Source: a virus
Lineage: Duplodnaviria > Heunggongvirae > Uroviricota > Caudoviricetes
DNA: 14,225 nt
IMG/VR virus record: IMGVR_UViG_2778261499_000007
Reading direction: 5' to 3' (one strand)
Position 1 is the first letter of the stretch. Every line of letters starts with the position of its first letter. Positions 2,926 to 13,293 of the stretch are shown here, piece after piece. The notes beneath the pieces were generated by a model. That model searched no databases. It was not told where the DNA came from and saw nothing but the letters and a program-made list of their open reading frames with translations. A program made the translations under genes and the position numbers.

Positions 2926-3255
2926 TTGATCACCTGCGATTTAAATTAACTCCCCTCAAAGAGTTCCGGTATAACCTCTCAAACCGCGACAGGCTCGGGC
3001 CGAAAAGTTATGCCGGAAATCTAAAGGGGGATTGATATAAGGAGAGGGAGATAGCCCCGCACCGTAGCCAAGCGGGGGCTATTCCACATGGGGAAACCGA
3101 CAACAGTCGGATGATAGTTCACAGTATGGGTTACGGTTACTAGAGAGCACTATCACGAAAGGCACTCCCCCGAATCAGTTCAGGCTGCGGTCACATCAGC
3201 GGGGAAATACCTTTCGGGATAGCTACCCACACAGAAAACCCGCAAAAGAAAACTG

Positions 3256-3264
3256 TGTGGATAA
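3256..3264. promoter_or_regulatory. Perfect DnaA-box 9-mer (TGTGGATAA)
   Basis: Exact consensus match within the 870-bp ORF-free leader upstream of the capsid operon. Confidence 0.25.
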
Positions 3265-3408
3265 CTAGCCCAATAGGAGAATTAATCGACCACTCAACGA
3301 TGATCAGGGTAGTGTTATTTATAGGGCGGCACCGCTACCTGGTCGCCTTTACTTTGGAGGAAAATATGGCAAATCAAGATCTTCTCAAATGATATTGATT
3401 CCATACTA

Positions 3409-3428
3409 TACTGTATATTATATCAGTA
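3409..3428. promoter_or_regulatory. LexA/SOS-box-like site (taCTGTatattataTCAGta)
   Basis: CTGT-N8-TCAG with an AT-only spacer; matches the E. coli SOS-box consensus CTGT-(AT)4-ACAG except the first base of the right half-site. Confidence 0.35.
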
Positions 3429-3775
3429 TTTACTCACATTGTCAACACCTTGATTATATAAATTCTAATAATTAGCGTAGTAACGGTATTTTCAGACCTC
3501 TATCAATCCCATCAATACGTCACCCCCACCCTTTAGATGCATACATCCGACCTACTTTGTAGGCTTGGCGTACTGCCAAGGTCGCAGCTATGCGACTCCT
3601 ATCTATCACCACTTTATAAAGCTTGATAGATATCTTTTGATCAATATCAATGTTTTCCGGGTATTTACCCGGCTATAGTTCGAATCAAGGAAGGGGAGCA
3701 TTGATAGAGACACCCAAAGGGGTGACTGAAAGTCACCTGGCATAGCCAGTGAAAGCACCCAACCGAACAAACAAA

Positions 3776-3790
3776 TCAACTTCTCGCAAA
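3776..3790 (+). promoter_or_regulatory. Conserved 15-nt motif TCAACTTCTCGCAAA, copy 1, immediately upstream of the RBS of the 3802 peptide
   Basis: Identical 15-mer at 4367-4381 and a near-identical copy (TCAACCTCTCGCGAG) at 13473-13487. Copies 1 and 2 sit at the same distance from an SD and ATG. Confidence 0.5.
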
Positions 3791-3801
3791 AGGTGATAGT
3801 T

Positions 3802-3924
3802 ATGGGTATCAAGAACAGTGCCAGCGCATGGCAAAAGGCCAGGTTTCATCACCCACACATTGTTAAGGCAATTGAGGTGGTTGGAGTTTTAGCCCTGATG
3901 TTAGCTCTGTGTGTGGAGGTGTGA
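3802..3924 (+). CDS. Small peptide, 40 aa, with hydrophobic C-terminal segment (MGIKNSASAWQKARFHHPHIVKAIEVVGVLALMLALCVEV)
   Basis: Below the ORF-track size cutoff; translated by hand. AGGTGA RBS with 5-nt spacing; predicted C-terminal transmembrane segment. Confidence 0.3.
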   Translation: MGIKNSASAWQKARFHHPHIVKAIEVVGVLALMLALCVEV

Positions 3925-3925
3925 G

Positions 3926-4006
3926 ATGGGCAAAGGAGGCAAAGCATTTTTAATAGGTCTGGCTATCCTGGATGTTCTACTAATCATGATTAAGCGGAGT
4001 TTATGA
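3926..4006 (+). CDS. Small hydrophobic peptide, 26 aa (MGKGGKAFLIGLAILDVLLIMIKRSL)
   Basis: Translated by hand. GGAGG at 3915-3919 with 6-nt spacing; ATG begins 1 nt after the preceding TGA; single predicted transmembrane helix. Confidence 0.25.
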   Translation: MGKGGKAFLIGLAILDVLLIMIKRSL

Positions 4007-4025
4007 ACAGCATTGAGAGGAGTTT

Positions 4026-4286
4026 ATGACGGGGGCTAAAGATATCAGGAGACTGAGGGAAGAGCTGATAGCTGAAATTAAAGCTAAGGCAAAGCAAATG
4101 GAGATAGCCGCACAAATGGATGTAGCGGAACAGATGTACAAGATGGTTGAGGAGGGAACGCCACGACAGGTTATCGCTAAAACCTTCGGTGTGGGGATCG
4201 CCACCGTGCACAGAAGGCTGAAAGCCTATGCCGACTACCACAATATCGAGAGAAAGGAGGATGGGAGATTTAAGAAGAATAAATAG
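4026..4286 (+). CDS. Small HTH DNA-binding protein (coiled-coil N-terminus, C-terminal HTH GTPRQVIAKTFGVGIATVHRRLK), 86 aa
   Basis: ORF track; GAGGAG RBS; clear helix-turn-helix pattern; the overlapping minus-strand ORFs are low-complexity shadows. Confidence 0.55.
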   Translation: MTGAKDIRRLREELIAEIKAKAKQMEIAAQMDVAEQMYKMVEEGTPRQVIAKTFGVGIATVHRRLKAYADYHNIERKEDGRFKKNK

Positions 4287-5103: not shown

Positions 5104-5113
5104 CCACACCTAC

Positions 5114-5143
5114 CAGGGGCCATCACGGCCCCTTTTTATTTAT
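5114..5143 (+). terminator. Rho-independent terminator (AGGGGCC-atcac-GGCCCCT followed by TTTTATTTAT)
   Basis: Perfect 7-bp GC-rich stem, 5-nt loop and T-rich tail starting 11 nt after the stop of the 4393..5103 gene. Confidence 0.7.
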
Positions 5144-5200
5144 CCCCTATTTACACTCCTTTCAGTCCTGATCATCACTCCCTACCCCCTGATCAATTAA

Positions 5201-5250
5201 CCCCTATTTAAGGGGTATTTAATGGGTATTTAATGCCTATTTATTGATTT
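5201..5250. repeat. Phased tandem repeats of TATTTAA at about 11-bp period (4 to 5 copies), plus a second CCCCTATTTA copy at 5144-5153
   Basis: cccctatttaa / ggggtatttaat / gggtatttaat / gcctatttatt / gatttaat; periodicity of about one helical turn. Confidence 0.6.
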
Positions 5251-6486
5251 AATCCGTTTTATGCCACAACCGCCCGGTTGACAGAGTAAGAGAGAGGGTG
5301 TAACCCTTTTTCGTAATACTAATAAAATCAATAGCTTAGCTCAATTGGCCTTTTCTCTGTTTTTGTCAAATTTAACATACCCTAAAAAACTGCAAAATCT
5401 GGCTGCAAGATTATCTGCAGCTGGATTTCTTACACCTCAATTTGTGGTATCACCCTGACTAGTTTGTGCATAAAATGAACAGTTTTTAACATTTCCTCTT
5501 CACCTGGTAACCACACAAAAAGCTAAAAACGAGGCACAGATAATCTTAGAGGCCTGTTTTCTTGTTATCACTCTGGAAACGTCGTAGAAGTGATTTTGAT
5601 GAAAGATGACCTACCCTATTACACCCCCATTTTTTGTTATCACAATTGCATCCTGTGCGGTGTATGGCTGTGTGCTGAAAGCGGTCTTGGGTGTGGGTGT
5701 CAGAAATATCCATTAGCGGTATTAATACCCGTCAGATGTTCGTCTGAGGTGCCAGGCAGGCGCTCCCCCACCTCCCTTTTTTCTTCTAACAATTCTCAAA
5801 TATCACACCACTGCCGACCACGTTACTACTCTGTTAATTCTTAAGCTTTGCTGTATGTTGTGCACATTATTTATTCAGGTGCGTGTACGTAAATTCTGGG
5901 CCTCCTTATCATGATTTTTAAATCAGATTTTGTAGTTCGGTTTCTTAGTGTAGATAAGATCTATTATGTTAAATGCAATTTTCCCAACCCTTCAAATCAA
6001 TGACTTACATGTAAGCATGCACTAACACCCCACACAGCACATTAGACGTATAGATGGCTATATCCCACATTTTTGATTGTTTTGTAGTCATTCCCCTGAT
6101 CATTTAACCAGTATAGTTTGTTCTTTGCAGACCACAAAATCGGAATTTACATCTGATTAACATAATCTGTTAGCATGATCACTATTACCCACACAACAAT
6201 AACCCCATGCAAGACTCTTCAGGCAATTTATCGGCGTGTTGGTGTGAACAGTCTTTCATGTTCTTTATGTTTTCATTGTCCTGTGTGAGGGAAGGATGGA
6301 CTGCCCCAGGGGCCACACTTATGATGCCCGGTCAACATAGCTATTGATAAAATCAACGGGTGTTGATCTGCATATTTCCCACACATGAGAGGAAATCAGA
6401 GCAAAGAGAGAGGAGAGAGGTTTGCTAGTCAAAATAGGTCAATTGACGGCTAATACAGAGTAAAAAATCAGATGCAATCACTCCCC

Positions 6487-6669
6487 ACCTGTTGGGATTT
6501 CCCGCACCTGTATAAGAATACAGTCATACTTTCCCGTTATACGGTCATACACATGATGGAATAACCTGTTGGAATTTCCTACAGGTTTAACCATACACAG
6601 GAGCTAACCTGTTGGAATTTCCTACTACTACCTGTCGGTATTTCCCACAGGTACCTGTTGGAATTTCCC
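6487..6669. repeat. Iteron array (5 copies of ACCTGTTGGAATTTCCY at 6487, 6564, 6607, 6630, 6653), candidate replication origin
   Basis: Near-identical 17-mers; the last three are spaced 23 bp apart; ACCTGT/ACAGGT inverted half-sites; followed by an AT-rich tract (6670-6710) and, 1.3 kb downstream, Rep-like genes. Confidence 0.7.
6508..6523. promoter_or_regulatory. Canonical SOS-box pattern CTGT-N8-ACAG (CTGTATAAGAATACAG) inside the iteron region
   Basis: Exact CTGT and ACAG half-sites with an 8-nt A/T-rich spacer. May partly reflect the iteron ACCTGT/ACAGGT half-sites. Confidence 0.35.
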
Positions 6670-6797
6670 ACACTAATAGATAAAGAGAATAGATCAATAA
6701 AAAGAACTCCCCCTATAATCCCCCAACAAGGGGGGATGGGGAGGGATCAGAGAGTGGGGAAGGTTTTCTAAGGGAAAAGCTTAACCCACAAATGAAA

Positions 6798-6826
6798 GCC
6801 TAAAGAGCATTAGCGACTCTTTAGGC
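6798..6826. other. Perfect 10-bp stem hairpin (GCCTAAAGAG-N9-CTCTTTAGGC), part of a highly structured ORF-free stretch (about 6790-7100)
   Basis: Exact inverted repeat. Nearby are GGTGAC-N21-GTCACC (6840-6872), TTAAGCC-tct-GGCTTAA, GTCCGGA-N20-TCCGGAC and tandem 17-mers at 6826-6843 and 6873-6889. Confidence 0.5.
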
Positions 6827-7231
6827 AATCTGTGTGTGGGGTGACAATGTATTCCATACATGACACGTCACCCAATTGTGTGTGGGGTGCTTACAGCACT
6901 TAAGCCTCTGGCTTAACCCTTCGGGCCTCTGTGTGGGAAGCGTAGTGCGATAGCACGTAGCTTTATAATGTGGAGTCCGGATAAGAGACTTCTGTTTCCA
7001 ATCCGGACCGTTTAAGCGAGGGATTCCGCTCGCCCGTGTATGCACACACGTAATAGGACGCTCAGAAATCGATTTTAAGGCCCAAAACGGGGCCTACAGC
7101 AACCTAAACCATACTCCATAGTGCAATTGCATTGCCTGATGCTTAAATCGCGTTGTAGGGCATCTCATGAGGTTTGAGTTTAACACCCTCCAAAGTTTTA
7201 ACAAAAAGTGCTCTCCCTCCATTGTGGGCCA

Positions 7232-7261
7232 TTGACAATCTTATTGCATAAATGCTATAAG
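7232..7261 (+). promoter_or_regulatory. Sigma70-like promoter (TTGACA-N18-TATAAG)
   Basis: Consensus -35 hexamer with a 5-of-6 match -10 at 18-nt spacing. One of five (A/T)TTGACAAT-type repeats in 7230-7560. Confidence 0.4.
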
Positions 7262-7551
7262 TGATTCTGGTTTTGACACGGTAGGGGCCATTAATAATGT
7301 TTACCCCTTTGCTGTGGACTTGCTTGCACCTATAGCACACCTAAATGATAATAATTCTCATTGACAATTGGTTGACAATATGATAAGATTATAAATAGGG
7401 GGAGAAACAGATCCGGAGGTCAATGTGGAAATTACTGATGCAATAGCGATCATCAACCTGGCTGTACTGTGGTGCGGTGTTGCCTACATAGCCGGAGTAA
7501 CTGCAATCGACAATCTCGAAGAAAAAATGATAGATAAATACAAAAAGATTG

Positions 7552-7580
7552 TTGACAATTTGACGAATGTCTGATAAAAT
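7552..7580 (+). promoter_or_regulatory. Sigma70-like promoter (TTGACA-N17-TAAAAT) about 125 nt upstream of the 7706 gene
   Basis: Consensus -35 and near-consensus -10 at optimal spacing, oriented toward the replication gene block. Confidence 0.45.
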
Positions 7581-7705
7581 ATAAAGCATAGGGTAATTCT
7601 CATCATAGTGAATTTCCTTAAACAAAAATGCGGGGGCTTGTCTTAAGTTCCCGTTTCTTTTTAACCGTATATCGCACAGGCGGTGAGCTGACAGGAGATT
7701 GAATC

Positions 7706-7915
7706 ATGGCTAAAACCGGACCGATAAGCCAGCTGGTAAACTGGACTACTGACGAAATCGTCGAGAACGTGCTTAAAGGTAACTTTCGAAAAACTTCCGT
7801 TTATGCATTTATTCGTAAACACAAAGGGGAATACCCACATATTGAAGCGGCAATAGAAAAACTTAACTTTATCCGCATTGAGCGTGAGCTGGAAAGATAT
7901 AAACATCTACTTTGA
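7706..7915 (+). CDS. Small hypothetical protein, 69 aa (possible regulator)
   Basis: ORF track; AGGAGA RBS with 7-nt spacing; first gene of the plus-strand block that continues into the Rep-like genes. Confidence 0.45.
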   Translation: MAKTGPISQLVNWTTDEIVENVLKGNFRKTSVYAFIRKHKGEYPHIEAAIEKLNFIRIERELERYKHLL

Positions 7916-9275: not shown

Positions 9276-9289
9276 TTTTTTTTTTTTTT
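9276..9289. repeat. Homopolymeric T tract (14 T)
   Basis: Seen directly in the sequence between the Rep gene stop and the 9307 ORF. Confidence 0.8.
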
Positions 9290-9306
9290 GTTTAAGGAAA
9301 TTTAAA

Positions 9307-9453
9307 ATGTATGGCGATTTTGATTATTACCTGGAAAAGGAAAAATATTTTGAAGATGAACTATCACAACATTTTTCATATTGGGAAGAATATTGTGGTT
9401 GGTTAGCTGAAGATCCAGCAGATGAAGAAAATGATTCTGACATCCCTTATTAA
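9307..9453 (+). CDS. Small, strongly acidic, aromatic-rich protein, 48 aa (MYGDFDYYLEKEKYFEDELSQHFSYWEEYCGWLAEDPADEENDSDIPY)
   Basis: Below the ORF-track cutoff; translated by hand. AAGGAAA RBS about 7 nt upstream; composition dominated by Asp/Glu/Tyr/Trp. Confidence 0.35.
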   Translation: MYGDFDYYLEKEKYFEDELSQHFSYWEEYCGWLAEDPADEENDSDIPY

Positions 9454-11190: not shown

Positions 11191-13293
11191 ATGGCAATGA
11201 AGGAAGTAGCCAAGCTAACAAACGTTATTTACTGGGATTCTGATAAATCCAGCTGGCGAAAAGAAGTTAAACGGCTTGAGGATTATAAAAAATCCTGGAA
11301 GAAAGCTACCGACGATATAGCTAAAGCGGATTTTAAATCTAATCAGGCTGTGCTCAGAACACAAAGAACACGCGCTAAGGTGGAAGAGCAGATCGCCAGA
11401 GCACAGAAGAAACAACGTGCTCAGGCTGTCAGCCGTCTGACCGGGGGCAATAATCCGGAGCTCTCCTCTATGCGCAAGTTCTATCAGCAGCAAGCCAGAG
11501 AGGCCGCCAGACAACAAAAACTGTTAGATCGTAGTGTTGGAGATGTTCAGCACAGAAAAGCACGTGTAGGGGCCAACAGTGCACGAATCAGCAGCATGTT
11601 TGATGGCTCCCTGGTTGCTCAGTTCCAATCCAGAATTCAGAGAGTTAATGCTGATTATGCTAAAGGGGCTATTAACCTGCAGACCTATAATCAGAAAATG
11701 GCCCGACTCAGATCTGAAATGAAGATGGCAACAGCAGAGGCCGGAAAATTTCAGAGCAGACTAGACAAAGCTGCGGTAGCAGGATCAAAGCTGCATGACA
11801 ACCTGGGCAAACTCAACTCCACACTAGGCAAGATAGCTATTGGCCTTACTGCCGCTGGCTGGGGTGTTCAGCGTGCTGTTAGTGGTGCTATGGGTAGCCT
11901 TGCAGATCGCAACAGTGCGTATTTCAGCTTAATGGCCCAGAACAAGGATGATAAAGAAAAAACTGATCAGCAGATGGCCTACGTCAAAAGAATCTCTTAT
12001 GACTACGGGATGGATCAGCGTGAGACTGAAGGCGGCTTTATGCGCTTTGCTGCAGCCACACCAAGCATAAAAGAGAAAGATAAGCAGGATCTCTTTGAGG
12101 CTATGGCGATTAAAGGCCGATCAGTGGGTGCTACCGCAGACCAACAGAACAGGGCTATCGTTGCACTAGGACAAATATATAGCAAGGGCGGTCGAGTGTA
12201 TGCGGAAGAGCTTAAGGGCCAACTTTCTGAAGCCCTGGCAGGTTCTCAGGTAGATTTCACTAAGGCCGCTATCGATGCCGGAGTCATCAAGAAAGAGGAA
12301 GAATTTAATAAAGCCCTTGAAGATGGCAAGATCACCATGGACAAGCTTCTTCCTTCTCTGGTGAAAATCTGGGGTGCTGCAAAAGAAACTAAAGCTTTTG
12401 CTGAATCCATGAAACAGCCAGAAGTAGCAATGCAGCGCATGAAAAACAGCTTTAACGAGCTGGCGATTCAGTTTATGGGTGTTGTGGATCCTGCAGATGG
12501 CGTTATTAGCTTATCTGAATCTCTAATCTCCATCTTCGAAGACCTCACCACTGATATGGACGGCAGCGGGAGCGCGGCAAAACAGTTCGGTGAGGCAGTC
12601 GGGGCTGCCATGCGGGAGATCATGTATTGGGTAGGCTTCGCTAAGGGATATATCGAGATTAAGGCTAAAGAGTTCGGCATGACCAGTGAGGAAGTCGGAG
12701 GATGGATCGGCAAGCTGGTTGTTGCAATCGCAGGTCTGAAGATCATCGGCACACTTCTTTCTCCGTTTACCGGACTGATTTCACTTGTCACACAGCTGAT
12801 AGCCTTGTTAGGTAAAATCCCTGGTATGAGCAAGCTTCTGGCTTCTGCCTCAGGTGGAACGGCAACAGGAGCAGCGGTCATCAGTGCAGGATCTAACGCT
12901 GAAAGAAGTTTCATTGATGGCAAGACGCAGGAAATGAGTAAGGAGAACTCAAAACAGGGTGCTTTGTTTGAGCTGGGAAGATTTGTTAGCAATGCTGGCG
13001 CACTATTCACACCTGGCGGTGATACTGGTCCTTTGTTCGATCAGGTCAGAGGCTGGTTTAATAAAGGGCCAACATTGACAGTAGACACTGGCATCAGACC
13101 AACACCAACGGGTGGCATAGCTATCCAGAATGGTGGATATCAACCAGTCCAAGTAAATGTAGCCCCACAAGGTGAGATTTCCGGCAAATGGGAGATAACC
13201 ATCGATGAGGGGGGAATTGCCAGGGTAATTCAGAAGGAAGTCAGCGATCAGTTGGATTGGAAAGCCACGCAGGAATCTAACCAGCTTTTCTAA
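11191..13293 (+). CDS. Tail tape measure protein-like, 700 aa
   Basis: Long coiled-coil N-terminal region; segment ADQQNRAIVALGQIYSKGGRVYAEELKGQLSEALAGSQVDF matches the conserved tape-measure domain pattern (SKG...EEL..QL.E.L.G); long hydrophobic helices at about residues 505-560; Gly-rich C-terminus. Confidence 0.7.
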   Translation: MAMKEVAKLTNVIYWDSDKSSWRKEVKRLEDYKKSWKKATDDIAKADFKSNQAVLRTQRTRAKVEEQIARAQKKQRAQAVSRLTGGNNPELSSMRKFYQQQAREAARQQKLLDRSVGDVQHRKARVGANSARISSMFDGSLVAQFQSRIQRVNADYAKGAINLQTYNQKMARLRSEMKMATAEAGKFQSRLDKAAVAGSKLHDNLGKLNSTLGKIAIGLTAAGWGVQRAVSGAMGSLADRNSAYFSLMAQNKDDKEKTDQQMAYVKRISYDYGMDQRETEGGFMRFAAATPSIKEKDKQDLFEAMAIKGRSVGATADQQNRAIVALGQIYSKGGRVYAEELKGQLSEALAGSQVDFTKAAIDAGVIKKEEEFNKALEDGKITMDKLLPSLVKIWGAAKETKAFAESMKQPEVAMQRMKNSFNELAIQFMGVVDPADGVISLSESLISIFEDLTTDMDGSGSAAKQFGEAVGAAMREIMYWVGFAKGYIEIKAKEFGMTSEEVGGWIGKLVVAIAGLKIIGTLLSPFTGLISLVTQLIALLGKIPGMSKLLASASGGTATGAAVISAGSNAERSFIDGKTQEMSKENSKQGALFELGRFVSNAGALFTPGGDTGPLFDQVRGWFNKGPTLTVDTGIRPTPTGGIAIQNGGYQPVQVNVAPQGEISGKWEITIDEGGIARVIQKEVSDQLDWKATQESNQLF

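Follow-up and report, generated by a model that had tools for sequence, protein, structure and literature searches.

Phages use tandem early promoters, such as A1-A2-A3 of T7, and plasmids use copy-control RNAs (CopA of R1, RNAI of ColE2 and IncB), in which a strong constitutive promoter gives a short structured RNA that blocks translation initiation. The targets of these RNAs are replication-linked small open reading frames (ORFs), specificity types exist, and the RNA is transcribed from the strand opposite its target. Type-I small RNAs derived from 3′ untranslated regions, such as MicL and DapZ, have a promoter inside the upstream ORF and share the Rho-independent terminator of the mRNA. The c4 RNA of phages P1 and P7, 77 nucleotides (nt) long, is encoded upstream on the same strand as its target, acts on the ribosome-binding site (RBS) and is the basis of heteroimmunity (PMC12197685). 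The short terminated isoform of IsrK, from the Gifsy-1 prophage, acts in trans on the read-through isoform (PMC4825925). As for satellites carried on plasmids, a 2025 review knows of one and no more. Here we analyze the IMG/VR record IMGVR_UViG_2778261499_000007, a stretch of 14,225 bp (hereafter the window), which by its alignments is one whole small phage-like plasmid of a ~13–14 kb circular E. coli family. We suggest that the repeated motif TTGACAAT marks sigma-70 promoters of this plasmid, and that one of them, P3, probably makes a terminated RNA that pairs with the RBS of a 48-amino-acid (aa) ORF, most likely repressing it.

The putative promoters P1, P2 and P3 (Table 1) resemble the T7 A1-A2-A3-type array, being same-orientation sites of strong type within ~330 bp at the head of a gene block, with 17–18 bp spacers, and they have the −35 context TTGACAAT of the trp and tac promoters (tac, TTGACAATTAATCATC). 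Unlike tac and the phage tandem promoters, all of them carry a TGn extended −10, P1 is optional and has no T at −7, and one promoter lies inside an ORF with a terminator ~45 nt further on. The ORF-internal promoter and common terminator are shared with MicL and DapZ, but the P3 RNA is plasmid-borne and its predicted target is in the same element. In its predicted action the P3 product looks like a c4- or IsrK-like regulatory RNA. Similarly to c4 and to the CI RNA of satellite P4, it lies 5′ of its target on one strand and within a single transcription unit, and is predicted to pair around the target RBS, while its matched RNA/target types are comparable to the heteroimmunity of phages P1 and P7 (PMC12197685). 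However, in contrast to c4, it does not match the Rfam C4 covariance model (at the gathering threshold, or at E <= 10 on 7540–7720), it is defined by its own predicted promoter and intrinsic terminator, making RNase P processing unnecessary, and its target is not icd/ant but the acidic 48-aa ORF, 1.7 kb off beyond the replication cassette. With IsrK it has in common the proposed use of one promoter for short terminated and read-through isoforms and a target at the translation start of a small ORF. IsrK activates translation, whereas the pairing here covers the Shine–Dalgarno (SD) sequence and the AUG and should repress, and the two RNAs have no sequence similarity. As with CopA and RNAI, a short structured RNA would act against the translation initiation of a small ORF and exists in specificity types, but it is encoded separately and on the same strand as its target.

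A repeated octamer in predicted sigma-70 promoters

Four exact copies of TTGACAAT are found on the plus strand, at 7232–7239, 7361–7368, 7372–7379 and 7552–7559, with spacings of 129, 11 and 180 bp. A fifth exact copy on the minus strand (3445–3438) was overlooked in an earlier note on this DNA, as was a bare TTGACA at 7273. Five copies compare with 0.85 ± 0.99 expected from dinucleotide-preserving shuffles (five were reached in 0/200), and four copies of any 8-mer within 350 bp never appeared in 300 shuffles. The clustered repeat claimed in that note is thus borne out, together with the 11-bp distance between the copies at 7361 and 7372. The plus-strand sites that it listed exist, but the base before them is A, A, G and G rather than A or T, which makes the motif (A/G)TTGACAAT; the degenerate copy reported at 7505 is also real, although its 9-mer starts at 7506. 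Outside the cluster there is no excess of copies with one mismatch (15 found, 17.8 expected), and the palindromic form ATTGnCAAT is not enriched on the plasmid (2 found; at least 2 in 22/200 shuffles). Taken by itself such a repeat is ordinary, since promoters close to consensus will have this sequence in common.

Both strands of the plasmid were searched for promoters with a consensus scan and a simple position-weight matrix (PWM) scan. The three best sigma-70 matches, at 3445(−), 7552(+) and 7361(+), are all TTGACAAT sites with a TGn extended −10. At 7232, 7361, 7552 and 3445(−) the −35 hexamer is TTGACA in 6/6 positions and TG stands one base 5′ of the −10. The well-spaced −10 boxes described earlier are there, each after TGn (7361-N17-TAAGAT, 7552-N17-TAAAAT and 7232-N18-TATAAG). 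An A at −11 and a T at −7, 16–18 bp from the −35, are present in P2, P3 and the leftward promoter and not in P1. The leftward site, which bears the fifth octamer and faces the capsid and baseplate gene arm, scores 12/12 with TG and is the best on the plasmid; it is conserved in the relatives L001 and L002. P3 is second (11/12 with TG), and P2, which has an A/T-rich UP-like stretch upstream, is third. P1 has PWM rank 17 and is the weakest of the set because it is without T at −7. We read TTGACAAT as a consensus −35 hexamer extended by two adjoining bases, in the strongest predicted sigma-70 promoters of the plasmid.

The remaining copies do not form such sites. The copy at 7372, which lies in the spacer of P2, has no −10 partner at any spacing of 15–19 nt. 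The copy at 7507 was rejected as a promoter, being a coding coincidence: it has no −10 partner, sits in codons of the 49-aa ORF and is not conserved. A further TTGACAAT that some relatives carry at the rep 3′ end was also discarded, as it has no usable −10 and lies within codons.

Conservation of the predicted promoters among relatives

We compared 47 related loci, 46 of which were used for the P1 and P2 counts. Among the relatives the length of the spacer is constant while its sequence varies. When P1–P3 are pooled, 1/42 of the −35, TG and −10 positions is variable, against 21/46 of the other positions (Fisher p = 1e-6). In P3 the −35 8-mer TTGACAAT and TGATAAAAT are identical in 47/47 loci, with six spacer haplotypes of constant length, and the hexamers of P2 are invariant in 46/46 loci over 6 haplotypes. 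Where P1 is present its hexamers and TG are kept, with eight varying spacer positions and up to five bases differing. The homology of P1 begins exactly at TTGACA across at least four different upstream contexts.

The variable parts lie beside these elements. P2 carries TTGACATT in five loci, so the ‘AT’ after its hexamer is dispensable. The copy at 7372 is mutated to TTGTCAAT in 6/46 loci and to TTGACAGT in 5/46, the copy at 7507 becomes ATCGACAAC in 9/46, and a second TTGACG, located 8 bp after the P3 −35, is replaced by CTCGCA in relatives. As far as can be read from the aligned loci, this pattern is a promoter signature and not that of an 8- or 9-bp protein site. It supports a promoter role for P2 and P3 and makes it plausible for P1, which appears to be a weaker and dispensable upstream promoter; the copy at 7372 looks like a non-essential extra −35-like box in the P2 spacer.

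A recurrent motif of the TGTGTGGGG / TTGTGGGC type occurs at 6833, 6879, 6930, 7221 and 7311, bordering mosaic segments.

A short RNA predicted from P3 and its complementary target

P2 is located ~28 nt 5′ of the GGAGG SD sequence and GTG of the 49-aa ORF, and probably drives this conserved membrane ORF, whose substitutions are mainly synonymous and whose start is GTG or ATG among the relatives. P3 is embedded in the last codons of the same ORF, and the ORF stop TGA supplies the TG of the P3 extended −10. An intrinsic terminator follows ~45 nt after the predicted P3 start. Its hairpin and U-run are present in every relative, the changes in the stem are one-sided and pair-preserving, and in three haplotypes one base is lost from each arm, a compensating deletion. 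With this conserved terminator placed before the 69-aa ORF, transcripts from P2 and P3 should mostly end at ~7662. In the consensus and position-weight scans no other promoter for the Rep genes was seen between 7662 and 7706. The earlier proposal of a bank of strong promoters driving the replication block stands in so far as P2 and P3, and more weakly P1, are promoter-like by rank and conservation. It does not stand for the genes served: P2 would feed the 49-aa ORF and P3 would fire into the terminator, so that the replication genes would be reached by read-through only.

The predicted 79-nt P3 transcript folds into two hairpins with −22.2 kcal/mol, against −11.9 ± 2.7 for shuffles (z = −3.8; as stable in 0/200), whereas the transcript of P1 is not unusually structured in the same comparison. 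The architecture of the P3 RNA includes an A/U-rich linker, the terminator hairpin and a U-tail. No Rfam family matches it, either over the whole window at the gathering threshold and E <= 1 or on 7540–7720 at E <= 10. A sub-threshold match to the L20-leader was set aside, as it merely reflects a hairpin followed by a terminator.

The segment AATTTCCTTAAACAAAAA of this RNA (7611–7628) is a perfect reverse complement, over 18 nt, of TTTTTGTTTAAGGAAATT at 9285–9302, and this is the sole long match plasmid-wide. The complementary target spans the SD region of the conserved 48-aa ORF, 1.7 kb downstream, and the AUG follows at 9307. RNAduplex pairs 7595–7628 with 9285–9319 over 31 bp, CAU:AUG at the start codon included, with −27.7 kcal/mol. 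In a scan with 60-nt windows the 9285 site is the best non-self target on the plasmid (−31.3 kcal/mol, background −12.5 ± 3.9). For the transcripts predicted from P1, P2 and the leftward promoter, the rest of the plasmid offers no long complement.

Co-variation of leader and target

Within the leader, variation is highest in the linker, and changes there are accompanied by changes in the target. We distinguish four types with a partner. In type A the leader AATTTCCTTAAACAAAAA(T) faces the target (A)TTTTTGTTTAAGGAAATT with 17–19 nt of perfect complementarity. In type B AATTTCCTTTAGTAGACTG faces CAGTATTCTAAAGGAAATT (17/19), and in type C AATTTTCCTTTAATGAACT faces AGTTCATCAAAGGAAAATT (18/19), with a matched extra base on both sides. 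In type D the leader TTTCCTTAATTAACTG and the target CAGTTAATTAAGGAAA match in 27/32 overall, and the target here belongs to another ORF, of 53 aa, whose start takes the same position. Leader and target are of the same type in 41/41 loci covering both sites, with no mismatched pair. This was judged by per-type duplex energies and type matching; a MAFFT alignment of concatenated leader and target put type C out of register. Cognate duplexes are mostly ~8–12 kcal/mol more stable than non-cognate ones.

The sequence between the two sites is exchanged independently of them. The 69-aa/Rep cassettes between the paired sites are of four kinds in type A and of five in type B, and one cassette cluster occurs flanked by A/A, B/B or C/C; leader and target thus stay matched although the DNA between them recombines. 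Subtype A2 has one A-to-G change in its leader and one in its target, each of which gives a G-U wobble on the plus-strand RNA, and this fits RNA pairing and not DNA pairing. A fifth leader type, with no partner, is found in plasmids without a separate 48-aa ORF.

In plasmids of this latter kind (L004, 3060–3100; L044, 4560–4600) Rep ends in an acidic ...DSAIPY. The 48-aa protein (9307–9453) ends in a similar ...DSDIPY, and it may be a detached C-terminal module of Rep; its link to replication is only hinted at by this resemblance.

Proposed mechanism

We suggest that the TTGACAAT sites act as strong constitutive promoters for the host RNA polymerase, with transcription starting at these sites (predicted near 7267 for P1 and near 7396 for P2). 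P2 would transcribe the 49-aa membrane ORF. Transcription from P3 would start at ~7587 and mostly stop at 7630–7662, and with efficient termination a two-hairpin RNA of ~75 nt would accumulate.

The exposed linker of this RNA and the 3′ arm of hairpin 1 would then pair with the SD/AUG region of the 48-aa ORF, beyond the 69-aa/Rep cassette. Such pairing most likely blocks ribosome binding, and translation of the 48-aa ORF would be repressed. Read-through mRNA, whether of the same plasmid or of a sister copy, would be bound in trans by the short RNA, and the leader could also act in cis inside this mRNA.

Transcripts that read through the terminator would supply the 69-aa and Rep genes. Polarity effects on the genes downstream are conceivable.

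Several observations weigh against this scheme. P1 has TATAAG or TATAAA at 18 bp as its −10, without the near-universal T at −7, and the P1 module (~7229–7313) is cleanly absent in 14/46 loci, with TTGTGGGC and CTGTGGAC as the exact borders of the deletion. A promoter role explains neither the orphan copy at 7372 nor the TTGACG after the P3 −35. Since no other promoter for the Rep genes is seen, read-through of the terminator must be appreciable. The next best targets of the RNA, other ribosome-binding sites included, still score −25 to −26 kcal/mol. As the types have the anti-SD core in common, non-cognate duplexes still attain −15 to −24 kcal/mol, and type D RNA on two type A targets is an exception to the preference for the cognate partner (−30.5 kcal/mol, −34.3 for the cognate). 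Subtype A2 no longer has the 5′ part of the duplex that reaches over the AUG. There are only four or five types, and therefore few independent co-variation events, and the conservation argument has limited power, because the plasmids compared are all near relatives from E. coli or Shigella.

Alternative explanations

The octamers might be protein-binding sites. The earlier note had proposed operator repeats for Rep, and the copies do lie between the origin repeats and the rep genes, while TGTTGACAATTT of P3 is loosely like the iteron core TGTTGGAATTT. Yet it is the five iterons upstream (Table 1) that follow Rep: the full array is found only where the N-terminal winged-helix domain of Rep is at least 90% identical to that of the window (the window itself, L001, L002 and L013; L021 departs from this rule), and where the Rep type differs, so do the repeats in this position. 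The TTGACA sites stay the same even where the N-terminal domain of Rep is just 16–60% identical to that of the window, so over the range of 16–100% identity they do not follow this domain and the proposal fails. An identity of the octamers as iterons was also rejected, as they are 8-mers set 129, 11 and 180 bp apart and not regularly spaced direct repeats of ~17–22 bp. We thus consider Rep binding, whether iteron-like or as an autoregulatory operator of rep, to be very improbable. More can be said for TTGACAAT being also, or instead, an operator for another DNA-binding protein of the plasmid (the 69-aa protein, the 86-aa HTH_7 protein or another conserved small helix-turn-helix (HTH) protein) that occupies the −35 boxes and so silences all major promoters together. 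Two bases beyond the hexamer are common to all four good promoters, P2 and P3 each have a second TTGAC(A/G) 8–11 bp downstream, giving direct repeats on one helix face, and (A)TTGnCAAT is a 4-1-4 palindrome; the predicted model of the 69-aa protein is confidently helical (predicted local distance difference test score, pLDDT, 88), possibly a helix-turn-helix. However, what mutates in the relatives is just the extra ‘AT’ and the second copies (TTGACATT, TTGTCAAT, CTCGCA for TTGACG), the palindrome is not enriched, there are no extra copies away from the promoters, and the octamer is no more than a strong −35 context, of which tac is an example. Neither a PDB fold nor a DNA-binding fold was matched by the 69-aa model, and the protein (50–100% identity among relatives) has no matches in Pfam, PHROGs or NCBIfam. 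We find nothing in support of an operator role for the 69-aa protein or another HTH protein of the plasmid, and regard such a role as quite unlikely.

The complementarity of leader and target also has other possible explanations. P3 could be a mere promoter of the 69-aa/rep mRNA, with the terminator as a simple attenuator and the complementarity working in cis only, for example in coupling Rep to the 48-aa ORF. The lack of another Rep-gene promoter between 7662 and 7706 speaks for this, as does the fact that one strand and one transcription unit contain both leader and target. But a hairpin with a 9-nt U-rich run is a canonical and strictly conserved terminator, so that short transcripts should predominate, and pairing by a short, abundant RNA would be kinetically favored over an intramolecular contact across 1.7 kb. 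The analogues c4 and IsrK act in trans (PMC12197685, PMC4825925). We therefore hold action in cis only to be unlikely. Hardly credible, in comparison, is a role of the two sites as DNA-level inverted repeats for recombination or cassette exchange around Rep, with the promoters incidental. The arms do bracket the most mosaic segment of the plasmid, but inverted repeats would invert the cassette and not exchange it, and the orientation is the same in 41/41 loci. Moreover, one arm is placed exactly at the SD/AUG and the other at the unpaired part of the terminated transcript, and the G-U-compatible changes fit RNA pairing rather than DNA identity. Hence, we favor a terminated P3 RNA that pairs in trans with the RBS of the 48-aa ORF.

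The plasmid and its relatives

Over its whole length the window can be aligned with circular plasmids of E. coli that measure 13.2–13.7 kb. One strain that carries such a plasmid is E. coli E275a (pE275a_13, CP035869). The annotation of these relatives includes a major capsid protein, a phage baseplate protein, a tape measure protein and HTH (Rep-like) proteins, and PLSDB types them as non-mobilizable. Homologues of Rep are almost all on contigs of 13.3–14.4 kb from E. coli, Shigella and E. albertii. In a public assembly collection about 1,700 indexed blocks (>1,600) contain the 48-aa and 49-aa proteins. A pattern scan of metagenomes gave three loci and no more. Terminase, portal, tail tube, packaging and lysis genes were not found in the plasmid family. 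With no terminase, portal, tail tube or lysis genes, the family is a candidate plasmid-borne phage satellite. Searches of GenBank phages by near-identity and by protein gave no relative of the region or of Rep, the tape-measure protein being the sole match (~25% identity), and IMG/VR scans with Rep and with the 69-aa protein gave no matches. No tRNA or tmRNA genes were found in the window, and we found no paper on this plasmid family in the literature.

The leftward genes (capsid arm) begin at ~2925, and the rightward genes run from 7425 in the order 49-aa ORF, 69-aa ORF, Rep genes, small ORFs and tape measure. Two long stretches, 2930–4025 and 5104–7424, are without ORFs. The second, of 2.3 kb, has no credible ORFs, is unannotated by PGAP too and is 91–94% conserved with relatives; it contains the iterons and many short repeats. 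The N- and C-terminal halves of Rep recombine independently. A perfect DnaA-box 9-mer (TGTGGATAA, ~0.1 expected by chance) is at 3256–3264, distant from the iterons. The leftward promoter (3445–3417) is ~485 nt upstream of the first leftward ORF (start 2925, minus strand), and its long leader (2926–3445, minus strand) is G+C-rich and apparently structured, with no Rfam match. Opposite this leader, at 3367–3393 on the plus strand, is an ORF of 8 codons (MANQDLLK) with a strong GGAGG SD sequence, possibly by chance.

Some records hold the element in other forms. NZ_CP043822.1 (L006) is a complete-genome record of 39.6 kb with three places matching the window, and is trimer-like. In two assemblies, among L032 and L028/L039, the element lies within far larger contigs, one of 79 kb and one of 353 kb, in the latter of which a transposase and a beta-lactamase gene are its neighbors; these copies may be cointegrates or integrated copies.

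Table 1. Position and character of the features discussed, in window coordinates
Feature	Position	Strand	Description
Baseplate gene	153–1010	−	
Major capsid gene	1544–2584	−	
Leftward consensus promoter (predicted)	3417–3445	−	TTGACA-N17-TATAAT with TG; bears fifth TTGACAAT
86-aa HTH_7 protein ORF	4026–4286		
Five iterons	6485–6671	+	ACCTGTTGGAATTTCCCAC; 19–21-bp direct repeats, likely Rep-binding origin repeats
P1, candidate sigma-70 promoter	7232–7261	+	−35 TTGACA 7232–7237; 18-nt spacer; TG 7253–7254; −10 TATAAG 7256–7261
P2, predicted sigma-70 promoter	7361–7389	+	−35 TTGACA 7361–7366; 17-nt spacer; TG 7381–7382; −10 TAAGAT 7384–7389
Orphan TTGACAAT copy	7372–7379	+	Within P2 spacer, 11 bp 3′ of P2 −35
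49-aa ORF	7425–7574	+	Small hydrophobic (membrane) protein; GTG start, GGAGG SD; PGAP-annotated in relatives
Degenerate copy TCGACAAT	7507–7514	+	1 mismatch; codons Ile-Asp-Asn of 49-aa ORF
P3, predicted sigma-70 promoter	7552–7580	+	−35 TTGACA 7552–7557; 17-nt spacer; TG 7572–7573; −10 TAAAAT 7575–7580
P3 RNA (predicted, ~75 nt)	7586–7662	+	Start ~7586–7588; hairpin 7589–7620; single-stranded linker; terminator hairpin 7630–7654; U-run to 7662
Antisense seed in P3 RNA (predicted)	7609–7628	+	Core 7611–7628, AATTTCCTTAAACAAAAA; linker and 3′ arm of hairpin 1
Intrinsic terminator	7630–7662	+	11-pair G+C-rich stem 7630–7654, then U-run TTTCTTTTT
69-aa ORF	7706–7915	+	First gene 3′ of terminator; Rep genes next
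Predicted target of P3 RNA	9285–9319	+	Translation-initiation region of acidic 48-aa ORF (9307–9453): upstream U-run, SD AAGGAAA, AUG 9307, first codons
Tape-measure gene	11191–13293	+	~25% identity to rV5-like and Felixounavirus tape-measure proteins

Implications

The octamer locates the control region of a ~13–14 kb plasmid family with capsid, baseplate and tape-measure genes, and it leads to a predicted regulatory RNA/target pair that has natural specificity variants and is directly testable. Such a pair could explain how replication-linked or late genes are restrained and how cross-talk among related elements is avoided. We put forward only tentatively that the P3 RNA could be a copy-number or immunity determinant of this widespread, undescribed family of E. 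coli plasmid-borne phage satellites. If so, the constitutive TTGACAAT promoters would give RNA in proportion to plasmid dose, shutting off translation of the 48-aa ORF, and by polarity the late and tail genes further downstream could be silenced as well. The matched types, of which there are four or five, would then be mutually compatible (heteroimmune) groups, which would explain why the matched flanks are kept while the Rep cassettes between them shuffle.

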